64,000 nt of DNA, from IMG/VR virus record IMGVR_UViG_3300045919_000097, positions 900 to 64,899 of that record. The stretch is one strand, 5' to 3'. The notes below the pieces were generated by a model. That model did no database searches and was not told where the DNA came from. It saw only the letters and a list, made by a program, of their open reading frames with translations. Shown one piece after another: positions 5,719 through 44,022 of this stretch (within the stretch, counting starts at the first letter, position 1; the number at the start of each line of letters is the position of its first letter). This stretch comes from a virus. Taxonomy: Duplodnaviria > Caudoviricetes. Position numbers and translations under genes: made by a program.

Positions 5719-7038
5719 ATGGCTAATTGGGCTCAACTTATCAAGTCTTCGGGCGGAACTCTTCGCCGCATGGCCGAAGAGATGGAAACACTGCAACTTC
5801 CTGAACAGCTCAAAGGGATCTTCCCAACAGCAACTGGTGAGACCATCCCAGTTTATCATGGTTCTCCACACGCTTTTGACGAGGTCAATTTCACTGACAA
5901 CCTGCGCACAGGTGAAGGTGCAATGGCCTTCGGACCTGGCGGCTACACATCTGGCAACCGACCACTGGCCAAGCACTATGCAGACACGCTGAGCAAAGGC
6001 AAATTCATCCAGCCACGCAGGCCAAGCGGTCCGTTGGGTGACACATTCCTCACAATGCAGAAAGCACTGCGCCTTGATCCTGAAGCAGCTATTGCATACA
6101 TGCAAGGAAAAACTTTCAACAAGGCTGAGACCATTGGGCTGACAAACCCAAATCGAGTCATGCCCACTGGTGAAAAAGCGGTTTACAACTATCGTCCTGG
6201 TGACGACTTGCCTGTATCAACTGGCAATGACGTCAACATTGATGCTTACCGCGAGTGGTTGAAAGAAAAAGGTGTTACCCCTGAGGAACTCAGGCTTCGC
6301 CGCATGGTTCCAGGCAACATGGATGAACTGCTTCGCATTGGTGATCGCCTGGCAGGAGGACCCAGTCCCATTCTGGGCTCAAAGCCAGCAGGTACAAGGG
6401 TATTGCGTGATGGTGTTGGTCCTTTCCGTAACCGGATGGATCTGAATCCTGGTGAAGAATGGATGGGTAATGACACAAGCGTTGTCAACAACCTGCGTGC
6501 AACGGCCGCGGCACAAGCAGGTGTGCCAGGTCCTATGTACAAAGCATCGCTCAGCAACTATTCGCCAGGTACTGGGACAGGTCGTGTCCCGATTGGCGAC
6601 CTTGGTCCTTTGAAGAACTGGGATGGCAAGATTATTCCTGGTAAGCCTGGGCAGCAGATGCCAAGTACAGATCCAAAGATCTACGAAATGGCATTGCACG
6701 CTAACCCTAACCTGCTGCTGTTCCAAGACTATCCGCTTGAAGCCCAGACAGCAATCCACGGTGCACTCAGCCGTCTATACGACATTTCAGGTATCAAGCC
6801 ATTGCCAATGACGGCAAAGGGCGAAGAGCTCATCAAAAAGCTGCCAAACGACGCACGTGGCATGCAGATGATGAACGAAGCAGGTATTCCTGCATCAGCG
6901 TTCTTGCGAGCTGGCCGTAGAGGCGATAGCTCGATCCCATCGGCGTTCAATCCTGACGACTACAACTTTGTCATTCACAATGACGATGCCCTTAAGATTC
7001 TTGATGTCAAGAACAAGAAGAAAGGCGGAACGGTATGA
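5719..7038 (+). CDS. ADP-ribosyltransferase-like protein of the polyvalent-protein type (split ART domain), probable virion cargo
   Basis: VYHGSPHAFD...TGEGAMAFGPGGY...AKHY N-half and GIPASAFL...YNFVIHNDDALKILD C-half resemble ART domains of phage polyvalent proteins; ends KKKGGTV. Confidence 0.65.
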   Translation: MANWAQLIKSSGGTLRRMAEEMETLQLPEQLKGIFPTATGETIPVYHGSPHAFDEVNFTDNLRTGEGAMAFGPGGYTSGNRPLAKHYADTLSKGKFIQPRRPSGPLGDTFLTMQKALRLDPEAAIAYMQGKTFNKAETIGLTNPNRVMPTGEKAVYNYRPGDDLPVSTGNDVNIDAYREWLKEKGVTPEELRLRRMVPGNMDELLRIGDRLAGGPSPILGSKPAGTRVLRDGVGPFRNRMDLNPGEEWMGNDTSVVNNLRATAAAQAGVPGPMYKASLSNYSPGTGTGRVPIGDLGPLKNWDGKIIPGKPGQQMPSTDPKIYEMALHANPNLLLFQDYPLEAQTAIHGALSRLYDISGIKPLPMTAKGEELIKKLPNDARGMQMMNEAGIPASAFLRAGRRGDSSIPSAFNPDDYNFVIHNDDALKILDVKNKKKGGTV

Positions 7039-10000
7039 CCGAGCCCACCGAAAAGCAGATCAAAGCTGGCAATTACCCAAAGGGCCACGTCTATGCCCAT
7101 GGGATGCGCATCAGCATCGAAACGCCTGCTGACGAGTTCCGTAGCGGAACGGACAAAGAAGGCAACGAGTGGTCAAACCGCATGCAGTACGACTACGGAT
7201 ACATCCGTGGCACTGAGGGCAACGACGGTGACCATCTTGACGTGTTCCTGGGTCCTGACTACAAGGACCACCAGTTTCCAGTACACGTAATTGACCAGCA
7301 CGATCCAGATACTGGCAAATTTGACGAGCATAAGGTCATGATGGGCTTTCCTGACAAAAAGTCAGCACTTGATGCTTATCATGCGCATTATCCTGAAGAC
7401 TGGAAGGGCGCTAAAGCCATCACTCCGCTCCATGTCGACGACTTCAAGGACTGGGCACTGAAACCAGGCATCAGGAAGAAGCCTCTGTCTCAGGTCAAAG
7501 GCTATGCTGAAGGCGGTTCTGTCGGCGGGTTCTTGGCTGATCCACAAAGCTGGGACGACATGGGAAAGAACCTTGGAGCCACTGCCAACCGGACTCTTAT
7601 CGGCTTGGCGGGCCTTGGTCCCGACGTCATCAACTGGGGCCTAAAGCAGATACCTAGATCGCGTTCTCTCAGCGACGTTGTTAAAGGCAATACCGATCTT
7701 GGCTGGGGCTCATCTGAGCCAATCGGAGGGACGGACTGGCTCAACCGCAAAGCCAGGGAGCATGGTATCGCCACAAGCAGTGGAAACGAGACGGCAGACG
7801 CCTGGGGCGATGCTGCTTTTGGCCTGGCAACTGCAAGCCCCACAGCACTCATGAATACGCTTGGCAAAGGGGCTCGTGGTGTTGCTCGTGGAGTAGGCCA
7901 GGCGATTGACCAAGGCATGCAAGGCGAGGGTGCTCTCAGCAAGGTACTGGCTCCAGTCCAGCCAGCTTATGCTGTGAAGCCTAAAGGCGGCAACTGGTCT
8001 ACGACACTTGGATCAAACCCTTCGCACCTTACTTTCCATGATATTACTGGAGATTCTGTCGCTACTAATCAATGGCGCGACAAAACACTTGCCAAGTATA
8101 TCAGTACACAACTTGGAACCGCTGACGATCCGTTACTTGCCCTTGAAAAAGAAGGAAGACTCCACGTTGACAAAGACCAGCTTATCGAGTCTGCAATGGA
8201 CGGGCGCTATGGCGAAGCATACGGATATGACGGAGACCTTTTCAAAGGAGATGCTAGACACGAGGAGCTGACAGGAAGGAAGTTGCGCACGCCCTGGGAA
8301 GCAAATGCAGATTCTTCTATGCGGTCACACGGTCCCCAGACAGAAATACAAGCACTCAAGGATCTTGCACACAAGCGTCCGGCAGATGGTCGTTCATGGA
8401 TTGATCACGGTGCAGAAGTCGATCCTGATACTGGCGAAGTCCTGTACCATGAACTTCCTCTCAAGGCTTGGTCTGAAGCCCATCCTGGAAATGCTTACCT
8501 TGCCAAACACCAGTGGCTGGAATCTGCTCCAAGAGGTACAGACATCTGGAACGTGACAAGCCTTGACAACCTTGGTTTCCAGCACATGCTTGATTATTTG
8601 GGGTCTGCTACAGATGCCCATGCTGCACTTGAACACCATGGATCAATTGAGGCTATGCGTACAGCAGCCCAAGGTGCTCTTCCAAATGCTGCAATTCACG
8701 ACCTCATTCCAATGGTTGAGCGCAATCTGCATTTGTCGCCAGAGCAATTGTCGCGTACGTCAGTTGCCGACGCATCAGCAAAAACCTCAGAGTGGAACAA
8801 ACTGCTGAGTTCTAGGAAAGCAACAGAGACTTCTGCACAGGTACCTACGTTCAGGGAATACGAAAATGGTTCCTACTGGAAGTCTATCCCAGACGTGAAC
8901 ACAGACAAAGATGCCCTTTCTTATGCAATGGCACACGGCAGAGATGCCGGATGGTGCACTATGCAGAATGGACTGTGCAGCCTTTATGGCAGCGGAGGAA
9001 GCCGCTTGCACATCCTTCACGATGCTGAAGGCAAGCCAAAAGTCCAGATCATGACAAAAGAAGGTGATTCCACAATGGAAGGTGCTTCTCAAATGTTCCA
9101 TCAGGCACACGGTCGTTTTCCAGGAAGCGTAAACGAACTTGATGAATGGGCAGGTGAAAACGGAATCCGCATCAATGACAGCACTGAACCTGGTAACCCG
9201 TCTATTGCTGAAATCAAAGGGCGCCGTAATGGTAGTCCAGATGCTTCGGATATTCCAGCCATCCAAGACTTTATCAAGACGTATTCACCAAACTGGGATG
9301 ATATTGGTGATTTGCGCAATTCTGGAATGGCAAAGTACCAGGGCAAGTACGCTCCGATAAGAGAAGTCGAAACGCTTCTTAAGCCTCGCATCAAAGAAGC
9401 TCGAGATTTTCTTGATAACCATCCGGCATTTGAGTCACATCGGCAGGCTGAAAAAGATTTCTTAGATTTTCTCCATAGTGGAAACAGCAGGTATGACGAG
9501 CAAGGCACGGCTCAAATGAGGCACCTTGAGCGTGGAGCAGGACAGCCACTGCATCAAAACATGCCGTATACCATGCGTGAAATGAAGGCAATGCTGGACT
9601 ACCCGGCAGATTGGGTCAACGGTAGAGACGAGTCAAAATATGATGTGCTTCAAAAGCACCTTGGAAGAATAGACGCTTTGAAGAGCCTTGTCCAAGATGG
9701 TGCTCATCGTGATGTCCACACATATCCGCCAAAGTTTGCGTCAGGTGGCACAGTTGGTGGCAACAACCTGCAGATTGCACCTCTTGGTGGCTGGGGCTGG
9801 GGTTATATGAATAGCGGTCAACCAGGAACAATGCCTGCGCCTCAGCCTGTACAAGCGCCAGACTTCAGCATTGAGAAGTTCAACCCAGGCGGAAACAGCA
9901 CAAGCATTATCAATCCTGGTGGAGATCACACTGATTTTAGCTCTGGTGCGCGTGGTGCAGATACTGGCATTGCAGGTGGCATTGGAAAGATTGCAAGCAT

Positions 10001-10664
10001 GACTGGTGCATTCAACACCATTGCAAGGGATCCTAACCTTGGTGCTCTTAGCTCTTATGCAGGTGCTATTGCAGGTGCTGCTGACGGCCAGTACGGTGGC
10101 GTTGGTGGACTCATTGGGCGTGCAGCAACTGACGGAAACCCAATTGGAAAGCTTGCAGGTACCTTGCTTGGCGGACTTGTAAGCGACACTCCAATGTCCA
10201 CAAGAGACGCAATGAGCACAGCTGTAGGATTTGTGCCTGGTATTGGAACCGCTTATAGCTTAGGTAACTTCGTTACTGGAGGCGCTCTTGCAGACGCAGC
10301 GTTTGGATCCAATGTAAAACCCACAGAAAGTGGAGGTTACGTACCTGCTCAGCCTGGGTGGTTTGGTAACTTTGGTCTACAATCCACACCAAAGATCGAT
10401 GCCAGCAACCTTGCAGCTTCAATGAACAACCCAGACTATAGCAACGAAGTCCACCTTGCTATTACTCAGCCAAATACTGTCAACACAAACAATATGGACA
10501 ATGAAAAGCCTGCGGCCCCTGTAGCGCCCGCACCAGCACAATCAGACTACAGCAACGAAGGACGTAACTATGGTGGTCCAGGTGGAAATAGTGGAGCTGC
10601 TACAGGCGGCAACAATGGCGATGCATCAGGCGGTGGCGATCGTGGTACCCGCGGCGGATTCTAA
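7035..10664 (+). CDS. large polyvalent protein: inorganic-pyrophosphatase-like (InPase) domain + PcfJ-like domain + Gly-rich tail
   Basis: PTEKQIKAGNYPKGH...YGYIRGTEGNDGDHLDVFLG...FDEHKVMMGF (InPase); GWCT...LHDAEGKPKVQI...IAEIKGRRN (PcfJ-like). Confidence 0.75.
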   Translation: MTEPTEKQIKAGNYPKGHVYAHGMRISIETPADEFRSGTDKEGNEWSNRMQYDYGYIRGTEGNDGDHLDVFLGPDYKDHQFPVHVIDQHDPDTGKFDEHKVMMGFPDKKSALDAYHAHYPEDWKGAKAITPLHVDDFKDWALKPGIRKKPLSQVKGYAEGGSVGGFLADPQSWDDMGKNLGATANRTLIGLAGLGPDVINWGLKQIPRSRSLSDVVKGNTDLGWGSSEPIGGTDWLNRKAREHGIATSSGNETADAWGDAAFGLATASPTALMNTLGKGARGVARGVGQAIDQGMQGEGALSKVLAPVQPAYAVKPKGGNWSTTLGSNPSHLTFHDITGDSVATNQWRDKTLAKYISTQLGTADDPLLALEKEGRLHVDKDQLIESAMDGRYGEAYGYDGDLFKGDARHEELTGRKLRTPWEANADSSMRSHGPQTEIQALKDLAHKRPADGRSWIDHGAEVDPDTGEVLYHELPLKAWSEAHPGNAYLAKHQWLESAPRGTDIWNVTSLDNLGFQHMLDYLGSATDAHAALEHHGSIEAMRTAAQGALPNAAIHDLIPMVERNLHLSPEQLSRTSVADASAKTSEWNKLLSSRKATETSAQVPTFREYENGSYWKSIPDVNTDKDALSYAMAHGRDAGWCTMQNGLCSLYGSGGSRLHILHDAEGKPKVQIMTKEGDSTMEGASQMFHQAHGRFPGSVNELDEWAGENGIRINDSTEPGNPSIAEIKGRRNGSPDASDIPAIQDFIKTYSPNWDDIGDLRNSGMAKYQGKYAPIREVETLLKPRIKEARDFLDNHPAFESHRQAEKDFLDFLHSGNSRYDEQGTAQMRHLERGAGQPLHQNMPYTMREMKAMLDYPADWVNGRDESKYDVLQKHLGRIDALKSLVQDGAHRDVHTYPPKFASGGTVGGNNLQIAPLGGWGWGYMNSGQPGTMPAPQPVQAPDFSIEKFNPGGNSTSIINPGGDHTDFSSGARGADTGIAGGIGKIASMTGAFNTIARDPNLGALSSYAGAIAGAADGQYGGVGGLIGRAATDGNPIGKLAGTLLGGLVSDTPMSTRDAMSTAVGFVPGIGTAYSLGNFVTGGALADAAFGSNVKPTESGGYVPAQPGWFGNFGLQSTPKIDASNLAASMNNPDYSNEVHLAITQPNTVNTNNMDNEKPAAPVAPAPAQSDYSNEGRNYGGPGGNSGAATGGNNGDASGGGDRGTRGGF

Positions 10665-10673
10665 GGAAGTAAC

Positions 10674-13600
10674 ATGAAAAAGACACGCGTCCATCCAATG
10701 GCAGATCTTCCTCCTGTAGACCAGGACAATTCAACTGCACCAGAAGACACGGACCAGGAGTCAGTTATCCCTGGAATTCCTGACGGCGATGGTGACTCAG
10801 ACGTCATTGACGATGACAATATGGAACTGCAAGAGGATGGCAGCTATATTATTAAGGACGATGACGATGAAGATGAAAAAGGTTCTGTTGAGTTTGACTC
10901 AAACTTGGCAGATGACGTCATTCCTGAAGATGAACTGACCCAACTGGGGACCGAATTCATTGAACTGATTGCCGCAGACAAAGAAGCCCGCAAGGACCGT
11001 GACAAGCAATACGCTGAAGGTATCCGCAAGACTGGACTTAGTGGTGGTAAGAATTCAGGTGCTGACTTTGACGGGGCCAGCCAAGTTGTCCACCCGATGA
11101 TTGCCAAGGGTTGCGTTGACTTTGCATCCAAAGCCATCAAGGAACTGTTCCCATCAGCCGGGCCTGTACGCACACAGATCATGGGTGACCAGACAGAGTC
11201 TAAGATTGACCGCGCAGAGCGCAAGAAGACGTACATGAACTGGCAGCTCACTGAGCAGATTCCAGAGCACCGTCCTGAATTTGAAAAGATGCTAAGCCAG
11301 CTGCCACTGGGAGGATCCCAATACAAACGCTGGTGGCGTGATGCTGATATGAAACGGGCGCGTACTGCTGCCGTCTATATCGACGATGTCTTCCTGCCAT
11401 TTGACCAAAACGATTTCTATACGACGCCGCGGCTGACGCACAGGGAGTTCCTTGGACGAGCTGAATTTGAAGCTCGTGTAGCCTCTGGTCTTTACAGGGA
11501 ACTTGACGTCTCAAACCTTGGAGATACTCCAGAACGCAGCGATGCAGAAAAAGCCTCACGTGAAGTTGAAGGTGTTAATGATGACGCTGCAGCTTATCTG
11601 TCTACAGGCGGAACACGTGAAACCTACTGTGTTTACGCAAACCTTGAGTTGAAAAGTGATCCTCTCACCAAAGGCAAACTGGCTCCGTACGTTCTTCACG
11701 TTGAAGAGTATGGATCAAGTGTACTTGGCATTTATCGTAACTGGGCTGAAAAAGATGAGCGCCGGCAAAAACTGCATTGGATGGTTGAATACAACTTCAT
11801 CCCATGGCGCGGTGCTTATGCAATTGGACTTGCTCACCTGATCGGAACCTTGAGTACTGCATCAACAGGTGCACTCAATGCACTCCTGGACTCTGCACAC
11901 ATTGCAAGTTTCCCTGGTGGCCTTAAACTCAAGTCTGGAAGGACGTCTGGCCAGACTGTCCAAATCAACCCTACTGAGCTGGTTGAAATTGATTCTCCAG
12001 CAGGTGTTGACGACATCCGCAAGTTGGTCATGGCTTTCCCGTTCAATGGGCCCAGCCAAGTGCTTAACGTACTGCTTGAATGGCTTACTCAACAAGCTGA
12101 AATGGTTGTTAGCACAGCTTCTGAAAAGATTGCTGATGCAGGTGCCAATATGCCTATGGGCACGGCTTTGGCTCTTATTGAAGGTGGTAGCACAAACTTC
12201 AGTGCTATTCATGCACGCTTGCACCACTCAGCCCGCAAAGAGCTTGAAATCCTGCACCGTCTCAATGCCACATACATGAAGGATCAAGAGACCGTTGAGG
12301 AGCTTGGTGAACTGGTTGTCTATAAAGAAGACTTCCAGGGTCCAATGGACATCATCCCAGTCAGTGACCCCAACATCTTTAGTGAAGCTCAGCGGTACGC
12401 TCAACTGCAAGCTGTTCTGCAACTAGAAGCAATGCCGCAGTTCCAGCCATTGTTCAAGCCTGAACGTTTGCTAGTACGGGCTCTCAGGTTGCTCCAGATC
12501 AGTTACGCAGACGATATTGCAAACCTGCCTAAAGATCCAAAGCGGATGACCTCCGTGGATGAAAATGCGGCAGCTGCTCTTGACGATGGAACACCGCTCA
12601 AGGTTTATGAGGAGCAAGACGACCTTAGCCACCTGGAAAGCCACGTTACGTTCATGACGTCTCCGCTGCTTGGTGCAAACCCGTTGATTGGTTCTACGGC
12701 GCTTCCAAAACTGCTGGCTCACTGCAAAGAGCACTTGATTGCTTACTATCGCAAGCACCACAAAGCAGCGACAGAAGCATTATCTGCCATTGCAAAGCAC
12801 CAGAACATGCCTCTTGACCAGCACCGCGCAGAGTCGTTGGGACACTCATTTGCTGACAAGGCAATGGCCCAGCAGCTGTCCTCAATGGTGGCACCAGGCC
12901 TTGAAAAGGCGGAGAAGCTTGCACAGCAGTTCATGCCAAAGCCACCTGCAAGCCCTGACAAACTGGCAGAGATCGCGTCCAACGAAAAGATTGCTGGTCA
13001 GACTGCCCAACTTGAAATGCAAAAAATGCAAGCTGCACAACAAGCTGATATGCAAAAGCACCAGCTTGAATTGCAAAGCAAAGCCGCTGAGCGGCAAGCC
13101 AATGACCAGAAAGAACTTCAACGGATGCAGATTGAGCTGTCATTCAAGTCTCAAGAGGCTGAAAAAGAAAGGCGCAGCAAGCTTGAACTGAGACAGCTTG
13201 AACTAAATGCAGAAGCTGCAAACAACGAACAGGATCGTGCCCTTACACAAAGCACAGCAGTTCTTGCCGCAAATATAGAAAAGATGCAGGCTGATAATGA
13301 CAGCAGGATTGCACAACTGACTTTAATGGTGCAAGACAAGCAAGTAAAATCTGGTGAAGAAAACAAACGCATTCTTGCTGATATGAAAGCTCGAAGCGAT
13401 CAAGCTTTGGCCGTTTTACAGTCTATGCTAGCTAAGCAAGAAGAAAGCGCAGAAGCAGCTTCTAAACCAGACATTAACTCAGTTATCACCAGTTTGCTAG
13501 AAAGCGTCCAGGAAAATGCGCAGCAATTAGCTCAGCACATGTCAGAGCAAAACGAGATGTCTAGCCAGACGCTATCAGAAATTGCAGAAGGAATGAAATC

Positions 13601-13700
13601 ACTGCATAAGGCTCACTCAGCCCCTAGAATTGCCCAATATATACGAGATCCATCAGGAAATGTTTTAGGCGTTAAATCCACAATCGAAAACCAGGAGTAA
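10674..13700 (+). CDS. portal protein (P22-like, long C-terminal coiled-coil barrel)
   Basis: FDGASQVVHPMI, ELFPSAGPVRT, LPLGGSQYK, PVSDPNIFS motifs of podoviral portals; acidic N-terminus, Gln/Glu-rich helical C-terminus. Confidence 0.9.
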   Translation: MKKTRVHPMADLPPVDQDNSTAPEDTDQESVIPGIPDGDGDSDVIDDDNMELQEDGSYIIKDDDDEDEKGSVEFDSNLADDVIPEDELTQLGTEFIELIAADKEARKDRDKQYAEGIRKTGLSGGKNSGADFDGASQVVHPMIAKGCVDFASKAIKELFPSAGPVRTQIMGDQTESKIDRAERKKTYMNWQLTEQIPEHRPEFEKMLSQLPLGGSQYKRWWRDADMKRARTAAVYIDDVFLPFDQNDFYTTPRLTHREFLGRAEFEARVASGLYRELDVSNLGDTPERSDAEKASREVEGVNDDAAAYLSTGGTRETYCVYANLELKSDPLTKGKLAPYVLHVEEYGSSVLGIYRNWAEKDERRQKLHWMVEYNFIPWRGAYAIGLAHLIGTLSTASTGALNALLDSAHIASFPGGLKLKSGRTSGQTVQINPTELVEIDSPAGVDDIRKLVMAFPFNGPSQVLNVLLEWLTQQAEMVVSTASEKIADAGANMPMGTALALIEGGSTNFSAIHARLHHSARKELEILHRLNATYMKDQETVEELGELVVYKEDFQGPMDIIPVSDPNIFSEAQRYAQLQAVLQLEAMPQFQPLFKPERLLVRALRLLQISYADDIANLPKDPKRMTSVDENAAAALDDGTPLKVYEEQDDLSHLESHVTFMTSPLLGANPLIGSTALPKLLAHCKEHLIAYYRKHHKAATEALSAIAKHQNMPLDQHRAESLGHSFADKAMAQQLSSMVAPGLEKAEKLAQQFMPKPPASPDKLAEIASNEKIAGQTAQLEMQKMQAAQQADMQKHQLELQSKAAERQANDQKELQRMQIELSFKSQEAEKERRSKLELRQLELNAEAANNEQDRALTQSTAVLAANIEKMQADNDSRIAQLTLMVQDKQVKSGEENKRILADMKARSDQALAVLQSMLAKQEESAEAASKPDINSVITSLLESVQENAQQLAQHMSEQNEMSSQTLSEIAEGMKSLHKAHSAPRIAQYIRDPSGNVLGVKSTIENQE

Positions 13701-16397: not shown

Positions 16398-16601
16398 ATG
16401 GCCTCTGAAGCAGTATCCCAACACAAGCGGATGGCAATGAACAAAAGTACTGGTCACGTTTCTCGTGTATCATCTTTTGCCAAAGGGGGTTCAACAGGAA
16501 ACCTCAAAACCGGCATAAAAGAAAATCCAATCACCGTTTCAAAAATGAACAATGGCGTCCCAGGTATGAAAAAGGGTGGCAAGACAAAAGACGGATGCTG
16601 A
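16398..16601 (+). CDS. small basic protein with two xxKGG motifs
   Basis: AGGAG RBS; contains FAKGG and MKKGG. Confidence 0.7.
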   Translation: MASEAVSQHKRMAMNKSTGHVSRVSSFAKGGSTGNLKTGIKENPITVSKMNNGVPGMKKGGKTKDGC

Positions 16602-16604: not shown

Positions 16605-16784
16605 ATGAGCGAATCTTTAGTCATTGTTCTTCACAAAAGGCGTGACGACCTAGAGCAAAGTGTATTTGAGTTTCCTCCTTCCACATGGGATGAATTTCAG
16701 AGACGTCTTGGCCAGTGGATTGAGCTGACCAATCTTATCAACGAGCTTGAGCGACTTGCACAGGAGCAAACAAATGAAAGTTAA
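16605..16784 (+). CDS. hypothetical 59-aa protein (missing from ORF track)
   Basis: MSESLVIVLHKRRDDLEQSVFEFPPSTWDEFQRRLGQWIELTNLINELERLAQEQTNES; fills the gap exactly. Confidence 0.7.
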   Translation: MSESLVIVLHKRRDDLEQSVFEFPPSTWDEFQRRLGQWIELTNLINELERLAQEQTNES

Positions 16785-17058
16785 AATCACATACATCAGT
16801 GGCCTTACTGAGACCGTAATTCAAGAGTCAGCAGCAACCCTTGAAGAATTCTGCAACATTCACTTTGGTTCTGCTTGGGAGCAGGCCAAGGAGTTTGGTG
16901 CAACGGTTGAAGAGGTTATTGAAGAAGCTGCACTTGAAGTAGAAGTCCTGCTAGGTATGTCCACAATGGATCTGGGCGCAATCAACACTGATCAAATCCA
17001 GTCTTTGACAACTGAACAGCTGTCAGCACTGAAGCCAGAAGAAATCAAGGCCCAATAA
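16774..17058 (+). CDS. hypothetical acidic protein
   Basis: ATG 16774 after CAGGAG. Confidence 0.65.
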   Translation: MKVKITYISGLTETVIQESAATLEEFCNIHFGSAWEQAKEFGATVEEVIEEAALEVEVLLGMSTMDLGAINTDQIQSLTTEQLSALKPEEIKAQ

Positions 17059-18952: not shown

Positions 18953-19579
18953 ATGGCAACCTCCAAACCAACTCCCAAGACAGCTCGTTCCACAACTAAA
19001 TCTTCTGCTGACGATCGTGTCCGCAGAGACAAAGCTCCTACCGCACGTGGGGATCGCGGCATCGATGAAGATGCAGCACGTGCAAATCAGACCGGATTGA
19101 TCAATGACATGGACGAGTTCCAAAAGCTGCTCGCAAGTGAATTTGATCAAGTGGCGCTGCCAACGCCACCTGAAATTCCCGGATGGCATGTATGCTGGCT
19201 CACAACCGGGTCTGCTTATGACACTGTGCAAAAACGTCAGCGGTTGGGGTATATACCCGTGACTGCGAGCGAACTGCCTGGGTTCGAGACTGGTGGAATA
19301 GCTTCTGCACAATTTGGTGGTGCTATCACTTGCAACGAGATGGTTCTGTTCAAAATCTCTTCTGACCGCTATCAGATGATGATGAACACGTTTCACAACA
19401 TCCGTCCGTTGGAAGAGGAAGAAAACATCTACGCACAAGTGCAGGAACTGTCTGGCGATACCGATAGCAAAGGCAAACCGGCAGTCCGTAAGGTCGCAGG
19501 TGACCAGGACGACGGATTCACACAGTTGGGCAAGAGCATTGAGCGTGCCAAGAATGGTATGCCCGTGTTTGCGCCTTAA
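18953..19579 (+). CDS. conserved head-region hypothetical protein
   Basis: LPTPPEIPGWHVCWL...RLGYIPV...EMVLFKI; AAGGA RBS. Confidence 0.7.
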   Translation: MATSKPTPKTARSTTKSSADDRVRRDKAPTARGDRGIDEDAARANQTGLINDMDEFQKLLASEFDQVALPTPPEIPGWHVCWLTTGSAYDTVQKRQRLGYIPVTASELPGFETGGIASAQFGGAITCNEMVLFKISSDRYQMMMNTFHNIRPLEEEENIYAQVQELSGDTDSKGKPAVRKVAGDQDDGFTQLGKSIERAKNGMPVFAP

Positions 19580-34619: not shown

Positions 34620-36604
34620 GCCAAGGCGGACAACCATCTCCATTGTTTACGCTGACATCACAAGCAGGTGTCAGGCGTGATGGTACTGACCTTGATTCTC
34701 CATTTTATGCTGATGTTACATGGACAAGGTTTCAGCGCGGAAAGCCACGCAAGATAGGCGGTTACACTCAGCTCAGTGGTCAGTTAAATGCTCCCATTCG
34801 TTCTGTATATGTGGACGCGCGTAACGGGCAAATTACCTCTCACTATTTTGGCAAGTGGGGCATTCAGCGTCAACTGCTATCAGGTGTATCTGCAACAGGT
34901 CTTGTTGATCGCACTCCAGTAGGTTTTACACCAAGTGACTTTTTGACGTGGTCTCAAGGTGTCATGTACAGCTCAACAGGTGGGTCGTACTCAGCACTGA
35001 TTACTGCAGCAACCCCAGATCTTCTTGACGTCACTTCAGATGTTGGTGGTAGCGTGTATGCAGGAGATGTAGGATCTACTGATATTTTTGGTGTTATTAG
35101 TGATGGTAGTGGTCCTATTAGCATCAGTGGCGGAGTTTGTGTGCTGCAACCATTCTTGGTCGTGTATGGCAGCAATGGCCTTATCAGGAACACCAATGCC
35201 AATGACTATTCTGCGGCCACAGGGTGGTCCACAGGAACCGGCTATGCAAATACAGCAAACGTTGCAGGTACCAAAATTATCCACGGGGCACCTGTTCGAG
35301 GAGGTAGTGCATCTCCTGCAGGCCTTTTCTGGGCTCTTGATGCAGTCATCCGCATGTCATTTGTTGGAGGCACTAAGATTTTCCAATATGACACTCTGAG
35401 CCAGCCAACATCGATACTTGGCAAGAAGACAGTTGTTGAAGTTGACGGCAGGTTTTTCTGGATAGGCACTGACCGCTTCCTTATGTACAGCGGTGTTGTG
35501 CAAGAACTGCCCAACCAGATGAACGTCAATGATTTCTTTGAAAACCTGAACTACGCGCATCGCAACAAAGTGTGGGGTACTAAGATCCCGCGTTACGGCG
35601 AAATCTGGTGGTTTTATCCGCGTGGCACTGATACAGAGTGCAAAAACGCCGTCATCTACAATTATGTTGAAAACACTTGGTACGACGCCAAAGCAACTCG
35701 TGGTGCTGGCCACTCAGTGCAGGTGTTTAACAAACCAGTGTGGGCTGGTGATGAGGATGCTCAAAGCACGATAGCACTTACAATTGGGACTACACTAGGT
35801 ACCAGCGCAGCTACAGCTGCAGGCATTGCCGTTTTGAATTTTGCAACTTCACCTGCAGCCGCCGGTGTAGCAGCCGGTCAAAAAGTAAGTGGGTCCACAG
35901 GACTTCCAATTAATGCAACAGTGCTTTCAGTTGCGGCTCTTACCGTAACATTGACAGCAAACTGCATTGGTTCAGGTGTAGCCACTGGTGCTGCTTTGAC
36001 TTTCACGTCAATGACTACTGGGTTTGTTTCTGGTCAAACGGCAACTGGTGGGGCATCAGGAGCCACTGGCATTGTTGTACGAGCAACGGCTATAGCATTG
36101 AATCTGCAGAATGTGACTGGTACTTTTAATTCGGCAGAAACTGTGACTGGGCCAGCAGGAGCCACCTGCAAAACTATTGCTGCTAGCTACTCGCAGACAT
36201 TGACAAGCGTGTATGTGCATGAAGTCAACTGGGACAAGATCCTAGGGCAAAACGCTTACGCCATTCCTGCAAGTTTCACAACATGCAATTTTGGATTGGC
36301 TGTAGGTTCACCATTTGGTGATGCACCACAAACACTCGATGTAAAAACACGTGTTCTTCGAATGGAACCAGACTTTGACCAGACTGGAGACATGATTGTT
36401 ACTGTAAATGGCAAAAGCTACGCTAACCAAGCTTACTCAGTTCAAGACCAACAAACTTTTGGTGTTAACACAAACTTTGTGGATTTGAGAGCACAAGAAC
36501 GCATTGTCCAGATGCAGGTAAGCAGCAATACTCTCGGTGGGTTCTTTCAGCTTGGCCAAGTTCTTATGAAGCTCGCTCCTGGAGACGAGAGAGGTAATGG
36601 CTAA
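34616..36604 (+). CDS. tail nozzle / tubular protein B-like (P22 gp10-like)
   Basis: GVRRDGT...RFQRGKPRKIGG, FFWIGTDRF, EIWWFYP, IYNYVENTWY; Thr/Gly/Ala-rich insert. Confidence 0.75.
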   Translation: MSQGGQPSPLFTLTSQAGVRRDGTDLDSPFYADVTWTRFQRGKPRKIGGYTQLSGQLNAPIRSVYVDARNGQITSHYFGKWGIQRQLLSGVSATGLVDRTPVGFTPSDFLTWSQGVMYSSTGGSYSALITAATPDLLDVTSDVGGSVYAGDVGSTDIFGVISDGSGPISISGGVCVLQPFLVVYGSNGLIRNTNANDYSAATGWSTGTGYANTANVAGTKIIHGAPVRGGSASPAGLFWALDAVIRMSFVGGTKIFQYDTLSQPTSILGKKTVVEVDGRFFWIGTDRFLMYSGVVQELPNQMNVNDFFENLNYAHRNKVWGTKIPRYGEIWWFYPRGTDTECKNAVIYNYVENTWYDAKATRGAGHSVQVFNKPVWAGDEDAQSTIALTIGTTLGTSAATAAGIAVLNFATSPAAAGVAAGQKVSGSTGLPINATVLSVAALTVTLTANCIGSGVATGAALTFTSMTTGFVSGQTATGGASGATGIVVRATAIALNLQNVTGTFNSAETVTGPAGATCKTIAASYSQTLTSVYVHEVNWDKILGQNAYAIPASFTTCNFGLAVGSPFGDAPQTLDVKTRVLRMEPDFDQTGDMIVTVNGKSYANQAYSVQDQQTFGVNTNFVDLRAQERIVQMQVSSNTLGGFFQLGQVLMKLAPGDERGNG

Positions 36605-36853: not shown

Positions 36854-37831
36854 ATGTCTGAAGATTATTCGTACGAAGACACACCAATGCCAGACACGCC
36901 AACTGGCCCGTCACAAGCATCTCCTGACTATTCCTACTCAGGTGGAGACATGGGCCCAGCACCGACTGCACCAGGCGGTGGTTATGGCCAAGCAGCAACC
37001 ATTGACAACAATCAATACGTCCCAGGTGGTGATTTAGGACCTGGTGCTGGTGCACAAATCAGTAGCTCAGGTCAGTATGTACCTGGCGGCGATCTTGGAC
37101 CAGGTGCTGCTGCGGCGCAAAATGCTGGTGCATCAGGTCAAGCTGCTCTCATTAACTATCTTTCAGGAACACCAAAATCTGAAGGCGACGGCATCTTTAC
37201 GCAGCTAATGAAAGGTTCTGGCATCCTCAACAAAGATGGAAAGCTAGATCTCTCAGACCCAAATTCGTTTGATCGCCTTATGCGCACCATTTCAGTTGGG
37301 GGCACAATTCTTCAAACGCTTCAAGGTCCTCAAAACCAGAAATCTCCACAGCAGTTGCAACAGCAGTTCAAGGGTCCATTTGATCAATGGAATCCGACTC
37401 AGCAAGCAGCTGCAGACAAGTACTTCAACAATCCCAACATTGGGCACTCATTGAATTATGCCCACACAATGGGTTCACCAATAGTGCCATCACGCCGATA
37501 CGCAGCTGGTGGTCCTGTCGAAGGTTCTGTTGACGATTCAAATCCTCAGTTCATGAGCCAAGGTGCTCTGAGCTTGGTGAAAGGTCCAGGCGGTGGCCAG
37601 GATGATCTTGTGCCTGCACGTCTTGCCAACGGTGAATACGTGCATGATGCAGACTTTGTCAGCGCTCTTGGTGATGGCAGCAACGAGCACGGCGCCAAGA
37701 TCCTTGACAAACTTCGTGAACTTGTGCGAGCGCATAAGCGGTCGGCGTCTCCTGACAAAATCCCGCCAAAGACAAAGTCAATCATGCACTATTTGTCTAA
37801 GGCAAAAACAGAGGTAGGCAAAAATGGCTGA
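36854..37831 (+). CDS. putative ejection protein with YAAGG motif and GPGGG.DD.VPARL.NGEYV domain
   Basis: Low-complexity N-terminus with duplicated QYVPGGDLGPGA; conserved C-terminal domain. Confidence 0.65.
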   Translation: MSEDYSYEDTPMPDTPTGPSQASPDYSYSGGDMGPAPTAPGGGYGQAATIDNNQYVPGGDLGPGAGAQISSSGQYVPGGDLGPGAAAAQNAGASGQAALINYLSGTPKSEGDGIFTQLMKGSGILNKDGKLDLSDPNSFDRLMRTISVGGTILQTLQGPQNQKSPQQLQQQFKGPFDQWNPTQQAAADKYFNNPNIGHSLNYAHTMGSPIVPSRRYAAGGPVEGSVDDSNPQFMSQGALSLVKGPGGGQDDLVPARLANGEYVHDADFVSALGDGSNEHGAKILDKLRELVRAHKRSASPDKIPPKTKSIMHYLSKAKTEVGKNG

Positions 37832-38849
37832 TGGAGCACTCTCATACCTGTTTGGTGCCAACCAGCCATCAAACGTAGATTCGTCTACTGCGGCCAGCAA
37901 TGGCTTGCCAACATGGTACCAGCAGTATCTGTCTGGGATTGCAGGCAAAGCCACACAGGTGGCTGGTGCACAGGACAACATGCCTATACCAGCACAATCT
38001 GTGGCTGGTTTCAATGGTGACCAGACCCAAGCTTTCCAGCAGGTCCGTGACAACCAAGGCTCGTGGCAACCGGCAATCAATGCGGCAACAGGAGCCGCAA
38101 GCAGCATTGTTCCAGGTGCTACCAACCTTGTTGGACAAGCTCAGTCTGCGGTGTCTGGACCTGCTCAGACGTGGGATACTACGCAAGCGCAGAAGTACAT
38201 GAGCCCCTACACTTCACAGGTGGTGGATAACATTCAACGTCTTGGCTTGAGGAACCTCAATGAGAATCTACTCCCAGCTGTGCAGGACCAATTTATTGGC
38301 TCTGGTCAATTTGGTTCCACCCGCAATTCAGACATCCTTGGTCGTACAGTTAGGGATGCCAATACAGACATCTCAGGGCAAGTTGGCAACGCACTCAACG
38401 CAGGGTACACCAACGCTCAAACAGCATTCACGAGCGACGCCAACCGGGCTCAGCAACAACAGCAACTCCAAGGGTCAACAGCACTACAAGGCGCAGGCGC
38501 ACTCACAACGGCAGGCGCGCAAGGGGCTACGACGCTAGGTGCACTTGGACAGACCACTCAGGCTCTTGGAAACACAGATGCTGCTACACTTAACGCATCT
38601 GGTACTCAGCAGCAAGCACTTGACCAGCAAGGTCTAAATACCAACTACACCAATGCAACAAATGCCAACAACTTTGACTGGAACAATCTGAACAACCTCA
38701 ATTCTGTTGTTCGTGGCCTTCAACTTCCTCAGACTGCGGTGCAAACCACAAACCAACCGGCAACACCTTCAAACGGTATGTACAGTGGTTCTGCAGTCTC
38801 TGGCATTGGTGCTTTGGCATCTACGTTCAATAACGGCAAAACTGCATAA
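37824..38849 (+). CDS. putative DNA-ejection (pilot) protein
   Basis: LPTWY, YMSPY...VVD, GQFGSTR; Gln/Ala/Gly-rich helices. Confidence 0.65.
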   Translation: MADGALSYLFGANQPSNVDSSTAASNGLPTWYQQYLSGIAGKATQVAGAQDNMPIPAQSVAGFNGDQTQAFQQVRDNQGSWQPAINAATGAASSIVPGATNLVGQAQSAVSGPAQTWDTTQAQKYMSPYTSQVVDNIQRLGLRNLNENLLPAVQDQFIGSGQFGSTRNSDILGRTVRDANTDISGQVGNALNAGYTNAQTAFTSDANRAQQQQQLQGSTALQGAGALTTAGAQGATTLGALGQTTQALGNTDAATLNASGTQQQALDQQGLNTNYTNATNANNFDWNNLNNLNSVVRGLQLPQTAVQTTNQPATPSNGMYSGSAVSGIGALASTFNNGKTA

Positions 38850-38857
38850 GGATCACT

Positions 38858-40447: not shown

Positions 40448-40450
40448 GCC

Positions 40451-42886
40451 ATGGATCTCAAACTTGAAGACCTGTCGCCAGAAGACAGGAAGGCTCTTCC
40501 ACACAATCATCCTCTGCTTGATGAGTATGCTGAGCGCATGGCTGCCAAGTACGGTGTTGATCCTGCACTTGTGCTTGGCATCAAGAACGTTGGTGAACGC
40601 TCTGAGTCTAACTCAGTCAGTTCTAAGAAGGCTCGTGGCGTCATGCAGACAATACCAGCCACGGCCAAAGCACTTGGTATTGTGGACCAGACAGATCCTG
40701 TCCAGTCCATTGAGGGCGGCGTCAAGCTCATATCCCAGCACAGCAAGCAGCTAGGTACGAGTGACCCCGCCGTTTTGGCGGCAGCTTACCACGCTGGCCC
40801 AGGTTCCAAAGCCGTGAAGTCTGGGGATTTCAGTGGAATGCCTAAGACTGAGGCTTACTCTCAACGGGTTGCTGACTACGTCAAGGCAAACCCTAAGACT
40901 GTACCAGCCCAACCGGCAGCTGAGCCATCTGAGACACCCTCTGATAAGCCAGGGATGACTAAATTGCCTGCTGGGATTACTATAGACGACCTCAATCCAG
41001 ACGACAAGATTGCATACATGAAGTCCTTCTACAAGGCCAATCCTGGAACGAGTCCCACAAGTGGAAACAGCTTTGGTGAGAATGCACTTATAGGTGCGGG
41101 TAAGTTCTTTTCCGATACCGGCTCAGGTCTCCGCCAGGTTGCTGCAAACGTGGTAAATCCAGTGACCCATGCTTTTGGCGGCAAGGATCTGCTTCCACAA
41201 GATTATGAAGGCGAAAAAGAACGGCGCGTCCAGGACGATGCACTCATGCGTACGTGGGGTGGCAACATGGGATACATGGGTGCTGCTGCAACGTCCTTGG
41301 CTCTACCGGGTGCTGGTGTTGCTAAGGGCGTGGGATCAGTTGTGAATCCAATTGCACGGTTGCTGACAAACCCAGTTGCTCGTGCAGCAGTTGCCAAGTA
41401 TGGAACCATTGCAGGTGCTGCTGGTGCATTGTCTACGCTGACACCAACCACAAGACCAGGTGAACGTACTGAGAACGCAGCTGTCGGTGCTGCACTTGGA
41501 CCTGTTGCAGACGTTGCACTTAGTGGCGGTGCAAACCTTGCTCGGCGCGGTATCAACTGGGTTGGAGACCACGTAAACCTTGGTCCTCTGCTTCGCCCTT
41601 CGTTCAATGCCCAGGCAACACCGGAAGCAAGGCAGGCAGTTGCTCGCGCAGCCATGAACGACGTGCCAGTATATCCACAGCAGTTGGACGCGCCAGGAAC
41701 CCAGCTTTCAGCTGGCCAGACTGCAGACCAGACGTCACGGCTGACGCGTGCAATGAATGCAACCCATGGATCTGAGTCTGATAATATCCCAGGCGCGTTG
41801 AACGATACCAGAGACCGTCTTAGTGACGTCTATCAGCAGATCTTTGGCAACCGTACCATCCCGCTGAACACACCATCTGGACCTGCACCGGCCAACGGCT
41901 TGCCGCCTCCTGGAGGCACTCAGTCTCCAAGCATGCTTGCACAACGGTTGATGCAGATCAGGGCACAATACCTGCAAGCTAAGCCTATGAGCACGCCAGA
42001 CCAAGGTCTGCTGCAGGACATTGACTCTGCTCTTGCCCATATCAACAACGGTGGTACCTTGTCGGGACGCCAGTATCAGAACTACCTACGTGACTACAAT
42101 TCTTCAGCGGCACGTGCTGCTCGTAGCTCCATCCAGAACAATGTGATGACTGGGTCTGCTGACCATGAAGCATCTGCAGCTTATGGCCAAATGCGTGATG
42201 CCTTAATGGACCACGCATCTCAATATATTCCTCAGTGGCATCAAGACGCATTCAGAACAGCCAACCGCCAATGGCGCAATATGGCAACGCTCCAGAAGTT
42301 GGCACCTGCTGACATCAATGCGGACTTTAATCCTACGACTGTGGCTCGTGCACTTCAGCGTACTCCAGGAGGTACGTACGATGCAACAGATCCTACGCTC
42401 CAAGATCTTGCTCGGTTTGGCACGTCGTTCATGGGTCTTGATGCTAACCAAGGCAAAAAAGGCATTTTTGATATTTTGAAATCCGGGGCAAAGAAAGCAG
42501 CTCCATTCATTGCTACTGGTCTTGGCGAAGGTGCATTGATTGCATCGAGTACAACTCATGAAGATGACGAAAGCCCATGGGTCAAGGTACTTAAAGCTTC
42601 GCTCTTGCCAGCTGGTTACATGGCAGCAGCAGCAGCTGGCCGAGGATCCTTGAACAAGCCAGTCACCTTGAACCAACTCAATGAGCCACGTGGTGCCCTT
42701 GCCGATCTTTCGCGAATCCTTCAGCTGGCTCCTGCTGTTGAAGGTGCTACTGCTGCCCACAGCAAAATGAATGATGATGGTGAGGAACTGGATGATGATG
42801 GATACGTTAAAGGCTACAATCCAAAGGATTCTGGAGCACCACGCATAGAGGTCCACGGCATCGGCAACAGAGGAGATGGACAATGA
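40451..42886 (+). CDS. ejection protein with N-terminal lytic transglycosylase (SLT) domain
   Basis: KYGVDPALV...GE...VSSKKARGVMQTIPATA...AAYHAGPG...TEAY. Confidence 0.85.
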   Translation: MDLKLEDLSPEDRKALPHNHPLLDEYAERMAAKYGVDPALVLGIKNVGERSESNSVSSKKARGVMQTIPATAKALGIVDQTDPVQSIEGGVKLISQHSKQLGTSDPAVLAAAYHAGPGSKAVKSGDFSGMPKTEAYSQRVADYVKANPKTVPAQPAAEPSETPSDKPGMTKLPAGITIDDLNPDDKIAYMKSFYKANPGTSPTSGNSFGENALIGAGKFFSDTGSGLRQVAANVVNPVTHAFGGKDLLPQDYEGEKERRVQDDALMRTWGGNMGYMGAAATSLALPGAGVAKGVGSVVNPIARLLTNPVARAAVAKYGTIAGAAGALSTLTPTTRPGERTENAAVGAALGPVADVALSGGANLARRGINWVGDHVNLGPLLRPSFNAQATPEARQAVARAAMNDVPVYPQQLDAPGTQLSAGQTADQTSRLTRAMNATHGSESDNIPGALNDTRDRLSDVYQQIFGNRTIPLNTPSGPAPANGLPPPGGTQSPSMLAQRLMQIRAQYLQAKPMSTPDQGLLQDIDSALAHINNGGTLSGRQYQNYLRDYNSSAARAARSSIQNNVMTGSADHEASAAYGQMRDALMDHASQYIPQWHQDAFRTANRQWRNMATLQKLAPADINADFNPTTVARALQRTPGGTYDATDPTLQDLARFGTSFMGLDANQGKKGIFDILKSGAKKAAPFIATGLGEGALIASSTTHEDDESPWVKVLKASLLPAGYMAAAAAGRGSLNKPVTLNQLNEPRGALADLSRILQLAPAVEGATAAHSKMNDDGEELDDDGYVKGYNPKDSGAPRIEVHGIGNRGDGQ

Positions 42887-44022
42887 GTGGCATTGTAGAT
42901 CTGTCGCGCCTTGCTCGTGAAGGCGGAGGTGCACTGGCCGAAGCCTACTCCAATCTGGGCCGCAAATGGACACCTGAATTGCAAGCCATCCAGAAGCGTG
43001 TTGGTGAGTTCTATCAAGGCCTTACCTCGGCCAACCCTGAGTACTTTGCAACGTCTAAGGAGATCCCCAAAGGCGCTGATCCAGAGATCATGCGGTTGCT
43101 AGCCAAGAAGCATGGGTTTGATCCTGATGAGTTCAAGTATGAACAAGGATCTGTGACGCATCGTCCCACCGGTACATCCATTGGGCCCACTGGTGACACT
43201 CCATTGCTTCTTGCAAAGCAAGCACAAGAAGCCCGTGATAAAGGACAAGAGTCCTTAGCTCGTAGCATCATTGACAAGCTCAGGTTTTCAAAAGTTGCCG
43301 GGATGGGACCATCTAGTGACTTTTTGAATGCAGACTTGATCGGTGCCGATTCAGGTACTGGCATGGCGCGGAAGCTTTATCCATTCTACTCAGATTGGCT
43401 GATGGCCCATCCAGGAACCGGGCTTGAGCAACAAGGTATTACGGGGTCTAACCTTCAGAAGAAGGCCATGTATCAACTTCAGCCATTGGAAAAGTATGGT
43501 GAAGGATTCATGAACCGTAGCGAATTTTCCCCAGGCCAACTTGATTCCAATTGGGGTCAGCACAACAACGTCAGCCGGTTGACTGGTTCAGATCTGCCAA
43601 CTCAAGTTGGTGCACTGAACATGGCTATTGGCAACAACACAAATGCCAAGATCCACACTTTGCTGCAGTCTGCGCACGATGAGCTTGGTTCTCGGCTCTT
43701 AGACACTGGTGCTGATACGCCAGAGTTCAAGGCCCTGCTAGCTAAGCTAGACAGAGCCAAGAACGCTGGACTGACCACAACGTCATTTCCATCGAGCAAC
43801 AATAACTTCCAAGACCTGTCTAGTATCATCAGAGACATCTCAGGAGAGCTCAAGATTGACCAGCCAGTTGGCTACGACAGCCTACGCCGCATGGGCATAA
43901 CTAACGACGTCCTGAGGAACCCAGATATGGTTCCCCAGGATATTCCTAGTGAGCTAACAAAGGGTCTTGCTCGGGCGAGAGGTGGGCTGGTGACCCAGTC
44001 TCGTACACCTCGCGGGCAGTAG
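42883..44022 (+). CDS. hypothetical putative virion cargo protein ending in RARGGLV
   Basis: Last late gene; ATGA-coupled; AGGAG RBS. Confidence 0.65.
   Translation: MSGIVDLSRLAREGGGALAEAYSNLGRKWTPELQAIQKRVGEFYQGLTSANPEYFATSKEIPKGADPEIMRLLAKKHGFDPDEFKYEQGSVTHRPTGTSIGPTGDTPLLLAKQAQEARDKGQESLARSIIDKLRFSKVAGMGPSSDFLNADLIGADSGTGMARKLYPFYSDWLMAHPGTGLEQQGITGSNLQKKAMYQLQPLEKYGEGFMNRSEFSPGQLDSNWGQHNNVSRLTGSDLPTQVGALNMAIGNNTNAKIHTLLQSAHDELGSRLLDTGADTPEFKALLAKLDRAKNAGLTTTSFPSSNNNFQDLSSIIRDISGELKIDQPVGYDSLRRMGITNDVLRNPDMVPQDIPSELTKGLARARGGLVTQSRTPRGQ

Follow-up and report, generated by a model that had tools for sequence, protein, structure and literature searches.

A seven-residue peptide built around a pair of glycines recurs at the ends, and between the parts, of late proteins in an uncultured podophage. 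The DNA analyzed (the window) is a 64,000-nucleotide stretch covering bases 900-64899 of the 64,899-bp virus record IMGVR_UViG_3300045919_000097 (Duplodnaviria; Caudoviricetes), which is rated complete. The peptide, or tag, has the form [F/Y/M/L/K/R]-[A/K/R]-x-G-G-x-[V/I/T] and is much commoner than composition predicts; it is a real, selected peptide element limited to late (virion, cargo and ejection) proteins. We favor, with a probability of roughly 0.4, the view that it is a multivalent docking or loading handle for internal virion cargo rather than a maturation cut site. The lineage that bears it consists of uncultured podophages that are abundant and widespread in the environment.

Occurrence and enrichment of the tag

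The late genes of the window lie on the + strand (3108-44022), while the - strand carries replication and nucleotide-metabolism genes. The original prediction, made from the sequence alone, had listed seven such peptides in predicted internal virion proteins said to be otherwise unrelated. Translation places each peptide at its coordinates in the open reading frame (ORF) named, and BLAST and Pfam bear out the lack of relationship among the bearers. The seven copies are (aa, amino acids):

7015..7035 (+): KKKGGTV, the last seven residues before the stop of a 439-aa ORF
7503..7523 (+): YAEGGSV, residues 157-163 of a 1209-aa protein, 16 aa past its InPase domain
9735..9755 (+): FASGGTV, residues 901-907 of the 1209-aa protein, directly ahead of a Gly-rich tail
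16476..16496 (+): FAKGGST, residues 27-33 of a 67-aa protein (matrix score, see below, 8.4)
16566..16586 (+): MKKGGKT, residues 57-63 of the 67-aa protein (matrix score 9.8)
37499..37519 (+): YAAGGPV, residues 216-222 of a 325-aa protein
43972..43992 (+): RARGGLV, residues 364-370 of the 379-aa last late protein

Enrichment was measured over the 73 ORFs of the window (20,501 aa) against 300 shuffles of the residues inside each protein. The loose pattern [FYMKR][AK].GG is found 10 times against a shuffle mean of 4.33 (about 2.3-fold), a count reached by 3 of the 300 shuffles; two of the ten hits belong to early proteins, one primase-helicase-like and the other a PD-(D/E)XK nuclease, and are apparently unrelated to the tag. 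The two seven-residue patterns stand well above what a Gly-rich composition would give: [FYMKR][AK].GG.[VT] has 8 matches (mean 0.60) and [FY]A.GG[STP][VT] has 4 (mean 0.06), and no shuffle reaches either count. One further match to a wider pattern, RKIGGYT, lies in 34616-36604.

Since these patterns were chosen after inspection of the data, three independent tests were added. A scoring matrix was trained on remote homologues of the 325-aa protein (loci L012 onward), using every distinct GG site ahead of their conserved module (100 sites, not picked by the tag pattern), and was applied to the 886 GG sites found in the window and five relatives. Of the 20 sites scoring at least 8, 18 lie in the five tagged families, to which just 168 of the 886 belong; with the 325-aa family set aside as homologous to the training set, 11 of the 13 remaining sites lie in other tagged families (our own tally). 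The window tags rank near the top of the 886 sites, with low scores for RARGGLV (3.4) and FASGGTV (5.0). Conservation at orthologous positions, described below, rescues all seven, RARGGLV included.

For replication, the pattern [FYM][AKR].GG.[VILT] was fixed before five remoter complete or nearly complete genomes (G006-G010; portals 42-46% identical) were fetched. Copy numbers in these are 7, 5, 6, 4 and 6 (shuffle means 0.72, 0.45, 0.84, 0.62 and 0.45), a total of 28 where about 3.1 are expected, and in no genome does more than 1 of 100 shuffles reach the observed count. Across 11 genomes (the window and G001-G010), there are 51 copies in 142,494 aa of the late strand and 2 in 73,218 aa of the other strand; the predicted enrichment in late cargo over early proteins thus extends to related proteomes. 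Two cultured relatives served as negative controls: there are no strict tags in 36 late coding sequences (CDS) of Caulobacter phage RW (9,508 aa; 0.38 expected) or in 47 CDS of Roseobacter phage CRP-901 (12,141 aa; 0.39 expected).

Among the 51 late-strand copies, the first position is Y (30), F (15) or M (6), preceded by G in 22 of them, and the second is mostly A (31) or K (19). Any residue may follow, then the invariant G-G, then a small residue (S 14, A 8, T 6). The V two residues past the GG is the best conserved flank (39/51). The tag as a whole is often preceded by P or G and trailed by x-G. The seven window copies share just 5-15 of 21 nucleotides pairwise, so selection acts on the peptide and not on the DNA, and a DNA-level recombination seam was rejected.

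Tags delimit the modules of a polyvalent protein

Three of the window tags lie in two overlapping ORFs:

5719..7038 (+): 439-aa ORF with a weak ART-PolyVal match (Pfam E 4.7e-4, 21.4 bits) and a tag at its end
7035..10664 (+): 1209-aa polyvalent protein with an InPase domain at residues 6-141 (Pfam E 1.5e-52)

The match of the 439-aa ORF is under the 31.2-bit Pfam cut-off, and no homologue of this ORF was found in G001-G010. The 1209-aa protein is laid out as InPase, tag, a middle region with a PcfJ-like part, a second tag and the Gly-rich tail. Through an ATGA overlap, the InPase ORF begins where the KKKGGTV-stop ORF ends; the same junction in G002 and G004 is one unbroken chain of tag, about nine residues and the start of InPase. 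KKKGGTV is equal in position to the pre-InPase tags of G002 (residue 615) and G004 (353), and because the junction there is continuous and carries the tag, the inclusion of this divergent copy in the original prediction was justified.

In these two relatives the InPase module is flanked by tags on both sides (G002: InPase 625-759 by Pfam, tags at 615 and 773; G004: InPase 363-499, tags at 353 and 511), and in G003 InPase at 38-172 is followed by a tag at 202. The flanking tags stand 4-10 aa ahead and 12-30 aa behind, whichever modules are neighbors. YAEGGSV is orthologous to the tags at 773 in G002, 202 in G003 and 511 in G004, while FASGGTV has equivalents ahead of the Gly-rich tail in G003 (576), G001 (1288) and G002 (905). 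InPase and PcfJ are both present in G002 and G004, and PcfJ in G001, in shuffled order, and BLAST blocks between genomes start just past one tag and finish with the next. The polyvalent protein of G009 consists of two repeated halves with a tag at the end of each. As judged from these comparisons, the 1209-aa ORF consists of modules strung together with tags at their borders. This is the part of the proposed polyprotein that holds; on the other side, no protease family that might process it was found among the 40 late proteins of the window.

The tag is not a general feature of InPase boundaries. Of four polyvalent proteins from unrelated cultured phages, that of Vibrio phage douglas 12A4 has a near-tag, FASGGPE, and the other three lack one.

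Tags accompany the conserved end of ejection proteins

The ejection-protein operon begins and ends with tagged proteins:

36854..37831 (+): 325-aa first protein of the operon, with a variable N-terminus, a tag and a conserved C-terminal module
37589..37828 (+): the conserved C-terminal module, GGGQDD.VPA.L..GEYV followed by helices and a basic tail; no Pfam family
42883..44022 (+): 379-aa last late protein; 8 orthologues aligned

The 325-aa family comprises 134 protein homologues and 428 IMG/VR loci (80 of them retained), and its conserved gene neighbors encode the adaptor, the nozzle, and 79-aa and 341-aa proteins. Conservation is confined to the C-terminal part (tag, G.[DS]D..PA.L..GEYV, helices, basic tail); the proteins are 200-2000 aa long, with about 100 to 1900 residues making up the variable N-terminal part. 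Within YAAGGPV, G219 is invariant and A217 and G220 occur in at least 90% of 37 homologues. In a set of 67 distinct members with 93 tag copies, 76 copies fall in the 80 aa upstream of the module, frequently as runs of two or three; residues 216-325 of the window protein fit the same order, with [FY]-[AKR]-x-G-G and then, within 80 aa, G.[DS]D...A....GE[YF]V, helices and the basic tail. At the sequence level, this clustering is the pattern of an anchoring end. A Pfam search for enzyme cargo on 43 long module proteins (655-2000 aa) gave just collagen-like or marginal matches.

In an AlphaFold2 model of the 325-aa protein, the tag region (residues 209-226) has pLDDT values below 50, while the C-terminal module is confidently predicted as helical. 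Predicted disorder of the tag beside its own module would be expected of a motif read in trans, and this model, made for one copy, places the tag among short linear motifs in disordered segments. A complex prediction of module residues 228-325 with the 67-aa protein scored 0.00 (mark 0.32), a result that weighs neither way on binding.

Outside the podophages, the module weakly matches (E 0.046) two copies, each with a tag, in the tape measure protein of mycobacteriophage Douge, which suggests that the composite is much older than the podophage lineage. In this protein (gp16; PDB 8zdo_S), the two copies of tag and GE[FY] element, at residues ~957-1003 and 1410-1449, bracket an NlpC/P60-like stretch.

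All 8 aligned orthologues of the 379-aa last late protein keep both G367 and G368, within a consensus GLA[RK]A[KR]GG.[VI] near the C-terminus.

Tag-only proteins and free C-termini

Some small proteins consist of little besides tags. The one in the window is:

16398..16601 (+): 67-aa tag-only protein with two tags and a Cys at its end; 7 orthologues

In all seven orthologues, the GG of both tags, the Ala of the first tag and the -2 Lys of the second are invariant. Homologues in the remoter genomes are 60-111 aa long with 1-3 tags, and their genes lie directly after the portal gene in G007, G008 and G010. The remoter genomes also encode basic, low-complexity proteins with 5-8 tags by a wide pattern (300 aa in G006, 260 aa in G007, 182 aa in G008, 176 aa in G010), adjoining the capsid gene cluster. 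No tag-only protein had a match in any isolate.

Tags are also enriched at free C-termini. The core tag lies within the last 10 aa of 7 of 450 late-strand ORFs (e.g., KKKGGTV-stop, YRRGGRV-stop and MKKGGKC-stop), where 1.33 are expected and none of 300 shuffles reaches 7; none of 372 ORFs of the other strand has it there. Together with the orthologous positions and the InPase flanks, this agrees with the predicted location of the tag at termini and module boundaries.

Many tag proteins finish in a Cys past the last tag (..KDGC, ..KVGC, ..GGKC, ..KIEC, ..AVTC), with examples in the window (16590-16601), G001, G002, G006 and G008. Most orthologues of the last late protein finish in ..TQC.CGA(K), an ending that the window copy lacks. 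The terminal cysteines of the tag proteins and of the last late protein are possibly disulfide or metal sites.

Search for a protease or another reader

No protease had been recognizable from the sequence, and none emerged here: Pfam and PHROGs found no protease family among the 40 late proteins of the window, a negative limited by the many late ORFs that match no family at all, and the same searches, with the same limit, gave no clan CE cysteine protease. The capsid protein matches fused capsid-protease PHROGs over the capsid part only. No peptidase family was found at E<=0.01 in the 1209-aa ORF or the polyvalent proteins of four relatives. Homologues of the capsid protein (20170), the scaffold-like protein (17865) and the portal are all absent from the strict-pattern hits that were listed for the 11 genomes.

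Two readers had been suggested as candidate proteases, and neither looks like one. The first is:

18953..19579 (+): 208-aa head-module protein; not supported as a protease

It belongs to a widespread family (347 representatives at E<=0.001; 117 aligned) with near-invariant H79, D90, E129 and H148; Cys81 is replaced by I, F, V or M in 23 of the 117 members. Its AlphaFold2 model is confident (pLDDT 80.7) and has no Foldseek match at E<=0.001 (best E 0.36), and the best VIA-align match (Z 6.0) covers a helical hairpin only, with no protease among the matches. With Cys81 variable and no protease-like fold match, it was rejected as a protease, a novel fold remaining conceivable. The second candidate, the C-terminal module of 36854..37831, has no invariant Ser, Cys or His, is predicted to be helical and has no fold match (best E 4.2); as an S24-type Ser-Lys peptidase it fails in that the would-be Ser is Asp in the window's clade. 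What persists of the idea of a loading signal or cut site is thus a shared, selected tag on virion and cargo proteins, without the readers proposed for it.

Two further candidates were set aside. A RadC-like JAB motif, H.H.(7)S..D, occurs in a module between two tags of the G003 polyvalent protein (L089:13816-17433, residue 435). A JAB/RadC peptidase was rejected as the reader, the motif being found in the polyvalent protein of G003 only and absent from that of the window. The same regular expression also matched one unrelated 235-aa ORF of G005, and this RadC-like motif is argued in PMC5512222 not to belong to a ubiquitin-tail peptidase. Recruitment of GroEL through the tag was rejected because the tag lacks the hydrophobic triplet of the GroES-like loop TKSGIVL.

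A phylogenetic profile pointed to 21268-22455, which encodes a 395-aa protein after the capsid gene, as the sole widely kept late family without a BLAST match in RW and CRP-901. Its C-terminal half is conserved in 8 of 10 tag-bearing relatives, and in G006, G007 and G010 a multi-tag gene comes next after its homologue. Its alignment contains no catalytic pattern and suggests a beta-rich structural protein, not an enzyme. It is a candidate receptor.

A proposed docking or loading handle for internal cargo

Were the tag a passive linker, one would not expect four flanking positions to be conserved between such distant genomes, or the tag to be multiplied in tag-only proteins and kept at free C-termini; the data call for something that reads the tag, or for pairing of the tag with itself. 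From a motif whose reality, late restriction, conservation and positions are observed, we infer docking, a receptor and loading in the following form. The tag would mark cargo carried inside the particle: the polyvalent and ART-like proteins, the tag-only basic proteins, and the first and last proteins of the ejection operon. Each copy would be a small handle, probably a GG turn between an aromatic residue and a valine, that docks its bearer on a repeated site in the assembling particle (the portal/core complex, the inner capsid wall or an internal protein), and the docked bearer would be packaged and later ejected. Several copies on one protein would give avidity, and the tag-only proteins (2-8 copies) could act as multivalent adaptors or fillers. 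An exchangeable module would bring its own C-terminal tag, so that fusion of modules turns tags into internal "seams". A stronger form, in which a protease-independent cargo code operates and the seven-residue GG handle is sufficient to load any protein via the repeated internal site, strikes us as possible without being probable; the multi-tag basic proteins would then be dedicated multivalent adaptors, much like CsoS2 or encapsulin loading peptides, and modules with their own tag could shuffle freely between phages.

Several observations weigh against a docking handle. No receptor for the tag was identified. Tags bracket InPase in G002 and G004 and delimit BLAST blocks, as a polyprotein cut site would. 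The tag and module occur, by a weak match, in a siphophage tape measure protein and not a capsid protein, so a purely capsid-loading role would not be general. RW and CRP-901 share the portal, capsid, adaptor and nozzle genes yet have no stand-alone tags, so the receptor is not obviously any of these four. Around the module gene of the remoter loci, tags are not enriched in the ORFs up to 10 kb away (4 observed, 7.9 expected).

The foremost alternative, possible in our view without being probable, is a maturation cut site, with cleavage at the GG or beside it by a protease of phage or host origin. Cutting would release the polyvalent modules, trim terminal peptides and chop the multi-tag basic proteins to small peptides, on the model of T4 gp21 or phiKZ gp175 acting on internal proteins or adenovirus protease on core proteins. 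The fixed spacing of tags around InPase whatever its neighbors fits this alternative, as do the natural gene split, in which the ART-like ORF stops directly after a tag where the G002 and G004 proteins are continuous, and the repeated halves of G009, each finishing in a tag. It also gains from the small residues past the GG, a combination common among protease sites, and from the resemblance of the multi-tag proteins to sacrificial core proteins.

We place docking above cutting for several reasons. A protease is not detectable in the 11 genomes, with no protease family among the 40 late proteins of the window, and 18953..19579 shows neither a protease-like fold match nor a conserved nucleophile. 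Capsid, scaffold and portal homologues are absent from the strict-pattern hits listed, which would be unusual if a head maturation protease were at work. Enrichment extends to tags 0-4 residues from the C-terminus, where a cut removes at most a few residues and achieves nothing. The tag accompanies the sole conserved, anchor-like end of a hypervariable ejection-protein family, and the tag-only proteins keep their 2-8 copies. In addition, the best conserved flank is the V two past the GG, and we know of no viral GG protease with a preference on the side after the GG. Loading and cutting can coexist, as they do in T4, and cutting at some copies may occur alongside docking.

A self-associating sticker or structural joint with no dedicated reader is improbable. 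Here the tags would pair with each other or form a turn, so that the proteins co-assemble in an internal body or the modules unfold singly during ejection. The multivalent proteins have a sticker-and-spacer build, a tag stands at every seam, fold searches found no reader, and a local, chance-level match to the GG turn of ribosomal protein uL24 (E 0.86) fits a hairpin. A joint does not explain the tags at free C-termini, nor four tightly conserved flanking positions across genomes whose portals are 42-46% identical.

Less probable again is a function after ejection, in which an envelope component, chaperone or protease of the host reads the tag to refold, place or release the injected proteins. 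Tag and module do occur in proteins that exit via the tail (the ejection proteins and the Douge tape measure protein, with copies flanking its NlpC/P60-like stretch), and the phage encodes its own GroES-like protein; against this, the tag lacks the hydrophobic triplet of the GroES-like loop, and its bearers are predicted to end in different compartments.

An artefact of Gly-rich composition, for which the modest excess of the loosest pattern, its two early-protein hits and the extra RKIGGYT match might speak, is refuted by the composition-keeping shuffles, by replication in 10 other genomes, by conservation at orthologous positions and by the lack of tags in the two cultured relatives.

Comparison with known systems

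Short motifs common to head-internal injected proteins are already known. In T4, the internal proteins IPI-III and Alt carry a capsid targeting sequence and gp21 cut sites, and in phiKZ and SPN3US prohead protease sites lie on inner-body and ejection proteins. As in the podophages studied here, one short motif is shared by many unrelated head-internal injected proteins, an ADP-ribosyltransferase-like one included, and stands at termini and between parts. Those phages differ in having a recognizable prohead protease that also cuts capsid and scaffold, of which none was found here; the podophage motif is a different one, spares capsid, scaffold and portal, and also sits at extreme C-termini.

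The original prediction compared the tag with the sites of adenovirus protease and African swine fever virus (ASFV) pS273R, and the likeness holds in style: a GG core with an upstream hydrophobic residue, on basic core proteins. It does not hold in detail, as the hydrophobic residue ([YFM]) lies three positions before the first G and not two, one position further from the GG than in the quoted consensus (hydrophobic-x-G-G|x), with [A/K] two before. The tag further differs in its conserved Val two past the GG, and no clan-CE-like protein was found by Pfam or PHROGs.

Short Gly-containing peptides can tie cargo inside a protein shell, as encapsulin cargo-loading peptides and the carboxysome scaffold CsoS2 show; like the tag, such peptides are often terminal or repeated in a basic disordered protein. 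They belong to different organelles and have different motifs.

Embedded zincin-like peptidases have been proposed to process the polyvalent proteins found in phages and conjugative elements (Iyer et al. 2017, PMC5512222). These proteins share with ours InPase, PcfJ-like and (weakly) ART-PolyVal modules in shuffled order beside packaging genes; they differ in the embedded zincin-like peptidase, which is absent here. The words "linker" and "glycine" do not occur in the main text of PMC5512222, and no description of a seam motif was found there.

In Bacteroides phage crAss001, segments of the cargo protein C1 (gp45) are docked at three places, the portal wing, the tail barrel and the muzzle (Bayfield et al. 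2023, PMC10172136). C1 is ejected, and its short structured segments are docked 12-fold on the portal wing and in the tail lumen. Neither "cleav" nor "proteoly" occurs in the accessible text of PMC10172136, which reports no proteolysis, and within those bounds C1 is a precedent for cargo docked without reported cutting. C1 has no sequence relation to the proteins described here: Pfam crAss_CARG1 matched none of 37 module proteins at E<=1, and an Atlas lead between C1 and the module protein (0.80) was at chance level. In the same text, C1 has no described repeated consensus peptide, unlike the tag-bearing proteins.

Douge gp16 resembles the 325-aa family in having two tag copies directly ahead of a G.G.G..D...A..S.GE[FY] element, and differs in being a siphophage tail protein, matched weakly. 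In its structure (PDB 8zdo; PMC13033339), only residues 1658-1699 are modelled, and the motif region lies outside them.

A search for the motif strings in the indexed literature returned no phage paper. While the kind of element is known (a short motif common to head-internal injected proteins in T4 and phiKZ, and cargo docking in crAss001), the motif itself, its lineage, the multivalent tag-only proteins and the apparent absence of a protease are undescribed in the indexed literature that was searched.

Genome setting and neighboring genes

No nucleotide-level match to the window was found in the phage collection (20 kb queried). By portal, the closest cultured phages are Caulobacter phages RW/GB2A (~45% identity) and Roseobacter phages CRP-901/902. 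The late genes run from the small and large terminase, the 439-aa ORF, the 1209-aa polyvalent protein and a 1008-aa portal, through the GroES-like, scaffold-like and capsid proteins, fibres, an SU10-type adaptor and a nozzle-like protein, to the operon of ejection-type proteins of 325, 341, 529, 811 (SLT) and 379 aa. The scaffold-like gene spans 17865-18929, the capsid gene 20170-21201, the nozzle gene 34616-36604 and that of the 341-aa protein 37824-38849.

Other genes in this setting were also noted:

10674-13700: the portal, unusually long (1008 aa); residues 73-761 alone align with the portals of cultured relatives, an alignment that leaves the extra C-terminal part uncharacterized
16747-17058: ALTTAQ-repeat protein (PF20080, E 1e-7), among the late genes
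17110-17580: GroES-like protein with the loop TKSGIVL; BLAST matches in 6/10 relatives and in Caulobacter phage RW
30534-31289: 251-aa protein with 26.7% Gly and a match to PF05268 (E 1e-8), the T-even Gp38 tail-fibre adhesin family, in this podophage
31836-32390: 2OG-Fe(II) oxygenase (PF13640, E 1.7e-16), also among the late genes
43946-44821 (-): histone-deacetylase-domain protein (PF00850, E 7e-26), its gene convergent with the last late gene, with 3' ends overlapping by 77 nt
44818-47779 (-): dCMP-deaminase, thymidylate-synthase-like, MazG/PRA-PH-like and methyltransferase genes in series, possibly a DNA base-modification pathway

Implications for phage cargo

Phages that inject proteins along with their DNA must choose and hold that cargo, and the rules by which they do so are almost unknown outside T4 and the giant phages. 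The tag described here is simple, portable and conserved on the cargo and ejection proteins of an environmental podophage lineage without a recognizable head protease. Should it be a loading handle, it could account for the recruitment of polyvalent anti-defence proteins and for the swapping of their modules at fixed seams, and it would offer a tag for packing chosen proteins in phage particles. If it is a cut site, an uncharacterized GG protease of phage or host would be involved. In both cases, the motif can serve in practice to predict which proteins of a metagenomic phage genome are internal to the virion.

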